This document shows, one piece after another, positions 59,511-62,512 of a DNA stretch of 64,000 nt. Position 1 is the stretch's first letter, and every line of letters starts with the position of its first letter. Under the pieces are notes generated by a model. That model searched no databases and was not told where the DNA came from. It saw only the letters and a program-made list of their open reading frames with translations. Source of the stretch: an uncultured Candidatus Rokubacteria bacterium (GTDB taxonomy: Bacteria; Methylomirabilota; Methylomirabilia; Rokubacteriales; CSP1-6). A program made the translations under genes and the position numbers. The stretch is from contig CAVXJS010000009.1 of assembly GCA_963762145.1 (NCBI GenBank), positions 736,001-800,000 of the forward strand, written 5' to 3'.

Positions 59511-60110
59511 ATGGCGGCGGAAGTCGAGCTACCCAAGCCCGACGACCTGCACGAGCACGCCGCCAGTTCCTTCAGCCGTCGGGTCGCGCTGGTCACGGCC
59601 ATCTACGCGGTGGCCCTGGCCATCGCGGCCCTCGGCGGCAACCACGCGGTCAAGGAAATGCTGCTGGCCCAGCAGCTGTCCACCGACCAGTGGGCGTTCT
59701 ACCAGGCCAAGGTCATCCGCGAGCATCTCTACCGCGCCCAGAAGATGGGCCTCGAGGTGGATCTGGCCTAGCGCGCCGCGGCGCCTCAAGCGGCGGCGCG
59801 CGAGCGGATGGAGGCGCTTCTCAAGAAGTTCGACGAGGAGGAGAAGCGCTACAACGCCGAGAAGTAGGACATCGAGAAGGACGCCAAGAAGCTCGAGGCG
59901 CTCCGCGACACCTACCAGGCCCGCGAGCCCTACTTCCTGGTCGCGGAGGCGTTGCTGCAGATCGCCATCGTGATGTCGTCGGTGTCCATCCTGGCTCGCT
60001 CGGGCCTGATCTTCTCGGTCAGCCTCGTCCTCGCCGTGGTGGGCGCCGTCCTGACCCTCAACGGCTACTTCACGATCTTCCACCTCCCGTTCTTTCACGG
60101 CGGCCACTAG
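59511..60110 (+). pseudogene. DUF4337-like membrane protein with two in-frame TAG codons (59769, 59865)
   Basis: DQWAFYQAKVIRE before the first TAG; PYF..AE.LLQIAIVMSSVSIL after the second; single frame of 200 codons. Confidence 0.75.
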
Positions 60111-60112
60111 GC

Positions 60113-60135
60113 TCGGAGGGGGGCTATGCCCCCCT
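60113..60135. repeat. Left part of a REP-like palindrome interrupted by IS110
   Basis: TCGGAGGGGGGC-TAT-GCCCCCCT; the hairpin is completed by TCCGA at 61263-61267. Confidence 0.8.
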
Positions 60136-60147
60136 TGTATCTTAGGA

Positions 60148-60312
60148 ACTCCGGCGGATAGCGTAGCCGGAGTGAAGGCGGGCGGGAGCCCGCGCCCCCC
60201 TGGGTCGGCCAAGACCGTTCGGAAGCCTGGGGCCCTGCCTGCCGCTTCACGTGCCGTGAACCCGAACAGTCGCTTGGGCCGCTCGGCGAGCCCGCATCGA
60301 CAAGGACGGGAC
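60148..60312 (+). ncRNA. IS110 bridge RNA
   Basis: 5' hairpin ACTCCGGC/GCCGGAGT; target-binding loop with GCCCCCCT (60194-60201) and TCGGAAG (60219-60225); donor-binding loop with ACAGTCGCT (60266-60274) and ACAAG (60300-60304). Confidence 0.88.
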
Positions 60313-61245
60313 ATGGAACGGATCTTCGTGGGGCTGGATGTCTCGAAGGATCGGCTGGACGTGCATGTACGCCCCACGGATGAGCAGTTCGCGGTGGCGT
60401 ACGAAGAGGCGGGGGTGGCCACGCTGGTGCACCGGCTGGTCGACCTGCGGCCGATGCTGATTGTGCTGGAAGCGACCGGCGGGTATGAGAGCGCCGTCGC
60501 CGCCGCGCTGGCACACGCCGGGTTACCGGTGGCGGTGGTCAATCCCCGGCAGGTCCGGCAGTTTGCGCTGGCCACGGGGCAGCTGGCGAAGACGGATCGG
60601 CTCGATGCGCGGGCCAATGCGCGCTTTGCGGAGTTGGTGCAGCCGGCGGCGCGGCCGCTGGCCACGGAGCAGGCGCAGGGGCTGGGGGAACTCGTGGCCC
60701 GGCGGCGCCAGCTCGTCGATATGCTGGGGGCCGAGCAGAACCGGCATCGCCAAGCGCGGGTCCGCGGGCTGCAACAGCGCATCCGGGCGCACGTCACGTG
60801 GCTCACGCGGGCGATCGCGGAGGTCGACAAGGCGATCGCCCGGCTCATTCGCACGAGCTCCGTGTGGCGGGAGACGGAGGATCTGCTGACCTCGGCGCCG
60901 GGGATTGGCGCCCTCACCGCGCACGCGCTGATCGCCGACCTCCCGGAACTGGGTCGGCTGGATCGGCGTCGGATTGCCGCGCTCGTCGGCCTGGCGCCGT
61001 GGAATCGCGACAGCGGCCGCTGGCGGGGGCGGCGCATGATCGGCGGGGGCCGGGCCGCCGTCCGCCGCGCGCTGTACATGCCCACCATCGTGGCGATTCA
61101 CCACAACCCGGTGATCCGGGAGGTCTACCGGCGGCTCACGGCCGCGGGCCGCCCCAAGAAGGTCGCCGTCATCGCGGCCATGCGCAAGCTACTCACGATC
61201 CTCAACGCCATGCTCCGGGACCGCCGCCCATGGCAACCCGCTTGA
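60313..61245 (+). CDS. IS110 DEDD recombinase/transposase (310 aa)
   Basis: VGLDVSK, LEATGGYE, VNPRQVR, KTDRLDA, PGIG, GLAP..RDSG (catalytic Ser), A.MRKLL. Confidence 0.96.
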   Translation: MERIFVGLDVSKDRLDVHVRPTDEQFAVAYEEAGVATLVHRLVDLRPMLIVLEATGGYESAVAAALAHAGLPVAVVNPRQVRQFALATGQLAKTDRLDARANARFAELVQPAARPLATEQAQGLGELVARRRQLVDMLGAEQNRHRQARVRGLQQRIRAHVTWLTRAIAEVDKAIARLIRTSSVWRETEDLLTSAPGIGALTAHALIADLPELGRLDRRRIAALVGLAPWNRDSGRWRGRRMIGGGRAAVRRALYMPTIVAIHHNPVIREVYRRLTAAGRPKKVAVIAAMRKLLTILNAMLRDRRPWQPA

Positions 61246-61262
61246 CCGGCAAGACAGTCGCT

Positions 61263-61343
61263 TCCGACGGTCGTCGCGCGCCGGACGGCGCACTCCTCCC
61301 TGCCTCCCCCCAAGCGGATTGCGCGGGCGAAGCCCGCGCTCGA
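61263..61343. repeat. Right part of the interrupted REP-like element
   Basis: tccga...cctcccccca...GCGCGGGC-gaa-GCCCGCGC second hairpin. Confidence 0.65.
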
Positions 61344-61354
61344 AACGGCCGGGA

Positions 61355-62512
61355 CTAGCGGCGGAAGTCGGCGCGGGTCGGCAGCAGCCGGTCGGCGATG
61401 AGGTTGCGCATCATCTCGACGGTGCCCCCGCCGATCGCGAACATGCGGGCGTCGCGCGCCATGCGCTCGAGGGGCAGGCCGCGCCCGTAGCCGGCCGCCC
61501 CGTGGATCTGGAGCGCCTGGCCGGTCACCTCCTGCGCCATCTCGGCCGCGAAGGTCTTGGCCTCGGCGGCCTCGAGCGCGTCCGGGAACCCGGCGCCCGC
61601 GTTGGCGGCGGCGCGGTGGATGAGCAGTCGGGCCGCGTCGAGCTTGATCGCCATGTCGGCCAGCTTCCAGCGGATACCCTGGAAGTCGCCGATGACCCGG
61701 CCGAACTGTCGCCGCGTGCCCGCGTAGGCCAGGGCGAGCTCGTACGCGCCCTGGGCCAGGCCGAGGGCCACCGTGGCGGCGCCAAGGCGCTGGCTGTTGT
61801 AGGCCTCCATCAGCTTCTTGAAGCCGTCGGGCGGACCCACCAGCACGTGCTCACGGGGCACGCGACAGCCCTCGAAGTGGAGCCGCCCCTCGGGGATGCC
61901 GCGGAGGCCCATGGTGTGGTCGCGCTCGCCGACGCGGAATCCCGGCGTGTCGCGCTCGACGAAGAGGCCGCCGATGCCCGCCGCTCCCGGCTTCCCGCCC
62001 ATGCGGCAATAGACGAGATGGAGCCGAGACGTCCCGGCGCCGGTGATCCATCGCTTCTCCCCGTGGAGGGCGTAGCCCTCGGGCGCCTCGTCGGCGCGGG
62101 TCACGAGGTCGGTCGCCGCCGAGCCCGCCTCGGGCTCGGTGATCGCGATCGCGGGCTTGTCGCCCTCGAGCACCCACGGGAAGTAGCGCCGCTTCTGCGA
62201 CTCGGTCCCGTACGCGGTGAGCGCCCCGACCACCCCGAGGCTTCCCTCGACCACGATGCGCGCGGTGACCCCGCAGGCGCGCGCGATCTCCTCGACGACC
62301 AGCAAGACATCGAGGATGGACGCGCCGGCTCCTCCGAACGCCCGGGGAATGCTGAGCCCCATGAAGCCGGCCTGGACCAGATCCTTCACGTTGTCCCAGG
62401 GGTATTCCTCGGCGGCGTCCCAGCGGGCGGCGCGGTCGCGGAAGACGGTGTCGGCCAGGTGGCGCGCGCGAGCCTTGAGTGCTTCCTGCTCCGCAGTGAG
62501 CTTGAAGTCCAT
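61355..62512 (-). CDS. Acyl-CoA dehydrogenase-fold protein resembling 3-sulfinopropanoyl-CoA desulfinase
   Basis: EYPWDNV, GDKPAIAITEP.AGS, MGLRGIPE, YNSQRLGA, RDARMFAIGGGT (no catalytic Glu at the usual site). Confidence 0.8.
   Translation of the reverse strand: MDFKLTAEQEALKARARHLADTVFRDRAARWDAAEEYPWDNVKDLVQAGFMGLSIPRAFGGAGASILDVLLVVEEIARACGVTARIVVEGSLGVVGALTAYGTESQKRRYFPWVLEGDKPAIAITEPEAGSAATDLVTRADEAPEGYALHGEKRWITGAGTSRLHLVYCRMGGKPGAAGIGGLFVERDTPGFRVGERDHTMGLRGIPEGRLHFEGCRVPREHVLVGPPDGFKKLMEAYNSQRLGAATVALGLAQGAYELALAYAGTRRQFGRVIGDFQGIRWKLADMAIKLDAARLLIHRAAANAGAGFPDALEAAEAKTFAAEMAQEVTGQALQIHGAAGYGRGLPLERMARDARMFAIGGGTVEMMRNLIADRLLPTRADFRR

Follow-up and report, generated by a model that had tools for sequence, protein, structure and literature searches.

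Anatomy of the element

We analysed a 64,000-nucleotide stretch of DNA (the window) from an uncultured Candidatus Rokubacteria bacterium (assembly GCA_963762145.1, contig CAVXJS010000009.1, positions 736,001 to 800,000 of the forward strand). The window holds an IS110-family insertion sequence of 1,127 bp (60136-61262, counting one CT), with a CT core at both ends. The element is made up of a 177-nt non-coding left end, which is predicted to encode a bridge RNA, an open reading frame (ORF) of 310 codons and a 17-nt right end. The CT cores and the lengths of both ends are the same in all three copies found in the genome. The parts of the window copy and of its flanks are as follows.

60112-60133, + strand: left half of the target, with the 5' arm CTCGGAGGGGGGC (60112-24), the loop TAT and the left target (LT) TGCCCCC (60127-33)
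60134-60135, + strand: CT core dinucleotide, left copy
60136-60312, + strand: non-coding left end, 177 nt, encoding the predicted bridge RNA and beginning with the right donor (RD) TGTAT; matched by covariance model R1 (see below) at 106.6 bits
60313-61245, + strand: recombinase gene, 310 amino acids (coding 60313-61242) and TGA stop (61243-45)
61246-61262, + strand: right end, 17 nt, terminating in the left donor (LD) ACAGTCG (61254-60) and the core CT (61261-62)
61263-61267, + strand: right target (RT) TCCGA, in the right flank

An initial annotation of this DNA had placed the ends, the flanks, the guide strings and the ORF, and every coordinate and string that it gave was confirmed in the sequence. 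By a reading of the element's ends only, no terminal inverted repeats were seen. A longer frame starting at GTG 60172 was rejected as the gene: relatives align from ATG 60313, and the RNA model stops just upstream of it.

Layout of the predicted bridge RNA

The minimum-free-energy fold of the left end consists of a 5' hairpin and two stems with internal loops. The predicted parts of the RNA are listed by position in the window.

60148-60173, + strand: 5' stem-loop (CUCCGGCG / GCCGGAG...), from the fold; variable among relatives
60177-60243, + strand: target-binding loop module, from the fold and covariation, with an internal loop and an inner hairpin inside
60177-86 and 60188-91 with 60230-43, + strand: outer stem of the target module, with a bulged A at 60187
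60193-60201, + strand: left target guide (LTG) CGCCCCCCU, the same as the top strand of LT plus core
60203-06 and 60213-16, + strand: inner hairpin of the target module, GGTC/GACC, which separates the two target guides
60219-60225, + strand: right target guide (RTG) UCGGAAG, reverse complement of core plus RT (CTTCCGA), 2 nt (G, U) past the inner hairpin
60226-60227, + strand: handshake guide of the target loop, CC, from the family count and a rule in PMC11208158
60261-60310, + strand: donor-binding loop module, with outer stem CCCG (60261-64) / CGGG (60307-10) and inner hairpin GGGC (60276-79) / GCCC (60290-93)
60266-60274, + strand: left donor guide (LDG) ACAGUCGCU, the same as LD plus core at the right end, 9/9
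60296-60304, + strand: right donor guide (RDG) AU-CG-ACAAG, discontiguous, 9 nt, with ACAAG at 60300-04
60305-60306, + strand: handshake guide of the donor loop, GA, from the family count

The target module runs from the outer stem with its bulged A through a G linker, the 9-nt LTG and a 1-nt linker to the inner hairpin, which is followed by a G-U linker, the 7-nt RTG and the 2-nt handshake guide. Within the LTG, the 8-mer GCCCCCCT (60194-60201) is identical to the left target plus core. Matching of the LTG to the flank is 8/9 in the window copy and 9/9 in the other two copies, and the RTG matches 7/7 in all three. The donor module is ordered as stem CCCG, LDG, inner hairpin, G-C linker, 9-nt RDG, handshake guide and stem CGGG; the string ACAGTCGCTTG spans 60266-76 and covers the LDG. 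If the middle CG of the RDG bulges out, every one of the seven bases in core plus RD (CTTGTAT) finds a partner in the guide. Such pairing of nine RNA bases with seven DNA bases is a known pattern (PMC11208160, PMC11208158).

The two handshake guides are placed to pair across partners. C60226 can pair with donor position 7 (G61260) but not with the cognate target position 7 (C60133), and G60305 can pair with target position 7 (C60133) but not with the cognate donor position 7 (G). Pairing of handshake bases with position 7 of the opposite partner has been reported to promote strand exchange (PMC11208158). The initial annotation had described a 5' hairpin and two internal-loop stems, with target guides in the first loop and donor guides in the second, and both the fold and the covarying stems agree with this. 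The five bases ACAAG that it read as the right donor guide were confirmed, whereas the full 9-nt RDG and the handshake guides had escaped it.

Chance occurrence of the guide strings was assessed with 20,000 dinucleotide-preserving shuffles of the left end. Single strings appeared in 429 (8-mer), 452 (7-mer), 4 (9-mer) and 1,296 (5-mer) of the shuffles. Both target guides occurred together in 9 of the 20,000, and all four strings in none.

A likely ribosome-binding site, AAGGA (60302-60306), lies 6 nt 5' of the ATG; its bases belong to the RDG and to the donor-loop handshake guide. Given this placement, folding of the donor loop or its pairing with DNA could influence translation of the recombinase.

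Three copies occupy one repeated target site

The source genome (6.26 Mb in 25 contigs, 70% GC, 88% complete) carries three copies of the element. The other two each differ from the window copy at 9 of 1,129 bases (99.2% identical). All three have an open 310-amino-acid frame, with 3-4 amino-acid differences among the copies. The only difference in the left end lies at 60207-08 in copy B, in the apical loop of the inner hairpin.

The left flank of all three copies reads ...CTCGGAGGGGGGCT(AT or GC)GCCCCC-CT and the right flank CT-TCCGA. Sequence farther upstream is unrelated among them, so the copies represent independent insertions into one repeated site of 13-14 nt, the site that the guides specify. 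The initial annotation held that copies inserted at unrelated sites would refute its reading, and all three lie in the same target. The uninterrupted site would form a GC-rich hairpin whose 3' arm consists of LT, core and RT. This hairpin belongs to a family of repeats resembling repetitive extragenic palindromes (REP-like), for which the pattern C[TC]CGGAGGGGG was counted 53 times in the genome. Each of the three sites follows a co-directional open frame, whose stop codon begins 27-28 nt ahead of the core's end. For the 14-mer predicted from the guides, the assembly holds no unoccupied perfect site, 5 sites with one mismatch, none of them occupied, and 69 sites with two mismatches.

Guides covary with flanks among relatives

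A scan of one genome per species gave 18 loci, the most similar at 67% identity and the most distant at 29%; they belong to Methylomirabilota/Rokubacteria, Gemmatimonadota, Proteobacteria, Chloroflexota, Planctomycetota and an actinomycete. In the element's own phylum, 41 of 251 genomes had a match at E<=1e-40, the nearest outside the source genome being 70% identical. Plasmid records added two named relatives, ISMno7 and ISMex17, at 55% and 51% protein identity, respectively (tblastn). Guides were read from a covariance-model alignment with boundaries set by rule, and every guide pair was compared with every flank.

For the right target (40 guide pairs) the cognate mean was 4.45/5, with 28 perfect matches, compared with a non-cognate mean of 1.81 and 47 perfect matches in 1,560. 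The left target (42 guide pairs) gave a cognate mean of 5.10/7 with 9 perfect, compared with 3.15 and 4 perfect in 1,722 for non-cognate combinations. None of 100,000 permutations attained the observed sum for either target, a figure that overstates independence since the sequences are related. The 15 held-out guide pairs alone gave 4.47/5 and 5.00/7, again with 0/100,000 permutations. Cognate matching is far above non-cognate matching, held-out loci included, in the test for covariation that the initial annotation had proposed. The right-target set represents 30 distinct pentamers. Judged by eye, the match between guide and flank stops sharply past the seventh base.

The handshake bases follow the same pattern. 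That of the target loop pairs with donor position 7 in all 46 cases of the family (44 C:G, 2 U:A), and that of the donor loop pairs with target position 7 in 43/46 (36 G:C, 3 G:T, 2 C:G, 2 A:T). Cognate ('locking') handshake pairing was seen in just 2/46 for the target loop and 1/46 for the donor loop.

On the donor side, the left-donor heptamer equals the LDG in 43/46, in ten variants, a comparison that is partly circular as right ends were located using the LDG. At its two core positions the LDG is variable, reading CT, AC, CC, AT or CA in different relatives. This variability fits IS621, where the LDG is described as pairing only up to the first core base (PMC11208158). Compensatory changes in RD and RDG were found in L013 and L014. 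Three Planctomycetota elements (L014, L015 and L017) begin with CT-AGTAT and not CT-TGTAT, and their RDG matchingly reads ACUAG. The right ends of these three were not found using the left donor guide, and their right targets stand outside the test.

Three side observations concern individual relatives. The gammaproteobacterial contig L016 carries two IS110 elements in tandem: a second, different bridge-RNA left end (L016:1855-1982, 87.7 bits) lies about 110 nt past the right end of the first element. In a Burkholderiaceae relative the left end is 325 nt long (L018:1164-1488), with about 115 extra bases between the TGTATCT start and the target module, which looks like an insertion into the 5' portion of the RNA region. 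Two Rokubacteria genomes (L005 and L020) carry related elements with the right target CAGTC in both and similar downstream sequence. The L020 copy has a frame shortened to 269 codons and a left flank that matches its guide poorly (4/7), and the pattern suggests an old, decaying insertion at a common site.

Structural covariation of the left-end RNA

Covariation was examined in 30 aligned left-end RNAs over 26 base pairs, with the structure drawn by hand onto the alignment. Paired cells made up 95.1% of the total, compared with 36-53% when the partners were slid. Changes on both sides were found in 14 of the 26 pairs, 12 of these being among the 14 outer-stem pairs of the target module. None of 500 shuffles attained the observed pairing and covariation values.

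Covariance model R1 was built from this alignment. On the whole genome it matched the three copies only, and it recovered 20 of 21 sources, 18 of them outside its training set. Sources recovered include ISMno7, ISMex17, a Klebsiella plasmid element and the Planctomycete elements, and each match lies directly upstream of a recombinase gene. The sole source without a match to R1 was L021 (Nonomuraea, 29% identity).

The recombinase

The 310-amino-acid protein matches Pfam PF01548 DEDD_Tnp_IS110 (7e-21, residues 6-147) and PF02371 Transposase_20 (5.3e-18, residues 190-273). A phmmer search against all PDB chains returned only two matches. The best solved-structure match was the ISCro4 transposase (9t56_A; E 1e-36, residues 3-307), followed by the IS621 transposase (E 6.4e-35, residues 4-307). 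D9, E53, D95, D98 and S234-G235 align to D11, E60, D102, D105 and S241-G242 of IS621, and the five catalytic residues D9, E53, D95, D98 and S234 are all retained. Mutation of D11, E60, D102, D105 or S241 in IS621 is described as abolishing recombination (PMC11208158).

A promoter predicted at the circle junction

Joining the right end to the left end would bring together the two boxes of a sigma-70-like promoter.

61242-61247, + strand: -35 box TTGACC, overlapping the stop codon; TTGACN at the same distance from the core in 23/25 related right ends
60138-60143, + strand: -10 box TATCTT; TATNTN at the same place in 24/25 related left ends

The joined sequence, TTGACC-17 nt-TATCTT, passes a sigma-70-like rule, which is a consensus match only. 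By the same rule, the integrated form (59900-61500) holds no sigma-70-like site on either strand. A promoter rebuilt across the joined right and left ends (RE-LE) has been described for IS621 (PMC11208160, PMC11208158).

Environmental contigs

Sequencing runs were used in the form of assembled Logan contigs, and depth was not taken as copy number. RNA run X16 covered 59631-59886 only. Soil metagenome contigs from three studies carry the element, with near-identical left ends. One soil run has the left end (60128-60304) without any difference, and one contig from another study crosses the left junction (59927-60955). In several contigs the left arm of the hairpin is continuous with a ...CCCCCTTCCGAACCTCCCC... 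repeat that has no interruption. As the short side of these contigs is only 23-26 letters, they are most likely other members of the repeat family rather than the empty form of the locus.

In run X7, one contig matches the right flank to 61305 (61304-61305) and beyond that point reads TGTATCTCTG..., the left end of a further IS110-type element. As read from this contig, a different putative bridge element occupies a CT of the neighbouring repeat module in the X7 community.

Comparison with known systems

The bridge RNA mechanism and thousands of predicted orthologues have been published (PMC11208160), as have structures of a bridge recombinase and the handshake guides (PMC11208158). We compared the RNA studied here with that of IS621 through these published descriptions, not by alignment. 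The element has in common with IS621 the domain order, the five catalytic residues, the CT core and a left end of 177 nt. A 5' stem-loop followed by target-binding and donor-binding loops is likewise common to both, as are the 9-nt LTG with its 1-nt linker and the RTG lying 2 nt (G, U) past the inner hairpin. The 2-nt handshake guides after the right guides, the discontiguous RDG and the split RE-LE promoter complete the likeness. Compared with the IS621 donor 14-mer, which the initial annotation gave and which is present in a published IS621 donor DNA (dDNA) oligo (PMC13396178), the donor 14-mer here has 2 differences in 14 positions.

There are also clear differences from IS621. The protein is distant (E 6.4e-35, phmmer) and has 310 amino acids compared with 326. 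The natural RTG is 7 nt long here and 4 nt in IS621, and both core bases are matched by the LDG of this element. The two elements also differ in target, which here is very GC-rich, and the host is an uncultured soil lineage. The architecture is also that of ISCro4, or IS622, of Citrobacter rodentium (10.1101/2025.05.14.653916). That study screened 72 orthologues in human cells and describes IS622 alone as giving luciferase activity above background; the screen is also summarised there as any signal in 18/72 and robust activity in 1.

The nearest named ISfinder-type elements are ISMno7 and ISMex17, from Methylobacterium / Methylorubrum plasmids. Their left-end RNAs score 109 and 108 bits with R1, directly upstream of the ORF, and their guides match their own flanks at 4/5 each for RT and at 5/7 and 6/7 for LT. 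Both the guides and the targets differ from those of the element described here. We regard the latter as unnamed, since 51-55% identity is far below the usual level for the same insertion sequence.

Insertion into a repeat recalls ISPpu10 of Pseudomonas putida, which inserts into REP sequences and where the sequence 5' of LT is complementary to LT, so that a GC-rich stem-loop is possible (10.64898/2026.03.19.712850). Here GGGGGGC (60118-24) is complementary to GCCCCCC (60128-34), as in a target hairpin of the ISPpu10 type. The repeat family differs from that of ISPpu10, and a role of the hairpin in recognition is only a possibility here.

How the element may work, and alternative explanations

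The element very probably operates as IS621 does, as an autonomous insertion sequence in the IS110 group of the IS110 family. The initial annotation had named it an IS621-type bridge-RNA element, and the protein domains, RNA architecture, guides, handshake bases and split promoter of such an element are all present in the sequence. In the mechanism that we propose, excision would join the two ends at the CT core to give a circle, with 17 nt between the right end's -35 box and the left end's -10 box. Transcription from this junction promoter would yield bridge RNA from the left end, and probably the recombinase mRNA too. A tetramer of the DEDD/serine recombinase would hold the RNA, the first internal loop pairing with both strands of the genomic site (C/T)GCCCCC-CT-TCCGA and the second with the circle junction ACAGTCG-CT-TGTAT. 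Once the top strand is cut beside CT, the two handshake bases would pair with position 7 of the opposite partner and aid strand exchange, and the element would insert.

Several observations weigh against this account. The outermost LTG base, C60193, mismatches flank T60127 in the window copy. Among relatives, the left-target match is only partial (mean 5.1/7), right-target matches are imperfect in 12 of 40, the donor-loop handshake base does not pair in three of 46 (L007, L044 and L050), and the shared ancestry of the sequences tempers the permutation figures given above. The strict promoter rule was passed by only 11 of 25 related junctions, those that failed having mostly C or A as the last -10 base. 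A single-sequence fold z-score of -1.26 is not significant for a GC-rich RNA; as this score is uninformative for such RNAs, support for the structure was taken from covariation. Rfam 15, which may hold no bridge-RNA family, gave no family at E<=1 in 59800-61600. The assembled soil contigs, which cannot show rare forms, contained no circle junction. Transcription, circle formation, RNA binding, catalysis and reprogrammability are matters that we infer from sequence. The initial annotation's 'intact, programmable' recombinase is borne out as far as open frames and catalytic residues go and was overstated with regard to activity.

The most serious alternative accepts the anatomy and holds that the element is an inactive relic, its copies fossils of past transposition and its RNA or protein dead. 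For these loci the assembled contigs show no transcript, circle or empty-site polymorphism, the copies differ by 3-4 amino acids, and with no perfect target left in the assembly present activity would be invisible from the genome. Against this, all three ORFs are open with the five catalytic residues kept, the copies are 99.2% identical, and no substitution between them falls in a guide or stem, the sole left-end change (copy B) being in an apical loop. Near-identical left ends also recur in soil runs of three studies, and we consider a relic unlikely. It is much less probable still that the matches between internal strings and flanks are remnants of captured REP-like hairpins, or the product of misplaced boundaries, and that the left end is merely a 5' untranslated region. 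The near-palindromic target does make both 'guides' resemble halves of one repeat, and the genome has many such repeats (C[TC]CGGAGGGGG, 53 copies). However, relatives with unrelated, non-palindromic targets match likewise (30 RT pentamers, 28/40 perfect), the match ends sharply after 7 nt, the handshake and donor guides covary too, and the boundaries are identical in three independent insertions.

Membership of the IS1111 subgroup, in which the guide RNA (seekRNA) is encoded downstream of the recombinase, can be given almost no weight. IS1111 elements carry the same Pfam domains, but the 17-nt right end (61246-61262) leaves no room for an RNA, and the structured, covarying RNA lies upstream of the ORF. 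Our preferred reading is the IS621-like one.

Within that reading, we also raise, with considerable doubt, the idea that this clade represents naturally high-specificity bridge recombination. A full 7-nt RTG with a sharp end, both handshake pairs and a hairpin-locked left half of the target might jointly act as a stringent gate. This idea fits the genome, where the three perfect sites are all filled and the 5 one-mismatch and 69 two-mismatch sites are empty.

The mechanism was described in 2024, and the element is a further example, new within a known class. The initial annotation overstated its novelty, given the thousands of orthologues predicted (PMC11208160), and the element or close relatives may already be in the orthologue tables of that paper. 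What it adds is a natural guide-target pair that is well resolved and represented by three independent insertions. Handshake bases and a discontiguous donor guide are among the published bridge-RNA rules that can be read from the raw sequence of an uncultured soil lineage with 70% GC. Should it be active and reprogrammable, the element would offer an orthologue that is compact (310 amino acids) and fit for GC-rich targets. Candidates of this kind for engineering number in the thousands.

The repeat and the upstream gene

The target hairpin forms part of a composite REP-like repeat located 3' of stop codons. It consists of a hairpin CTCGGAGGGGGGC-nnn-GCCCCCCTTCCGA, then ACCTCCCCCC and then a second hairpin GCGCGGGCGAAGCCCGCGC. 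Loose patterns for the three modules were counted 53, 66 and 11 times in the genome; in the window they lie at 60112-60133 and 61263-61345.

Upstream of the element lies a DUF4337 gene (59511-60109, + strand; Pfam 4e-18 for 59511-59771). Its frame runs on to TAG 60107-09 across two in-frame TAG codons (59769-71 and 59865-67). Soil contigs have A at position 59865 (AAG, Lys) in X1, X7 and partly X5. A pseudogene, a strain variant or an assembly error could account for the interrupted frame.

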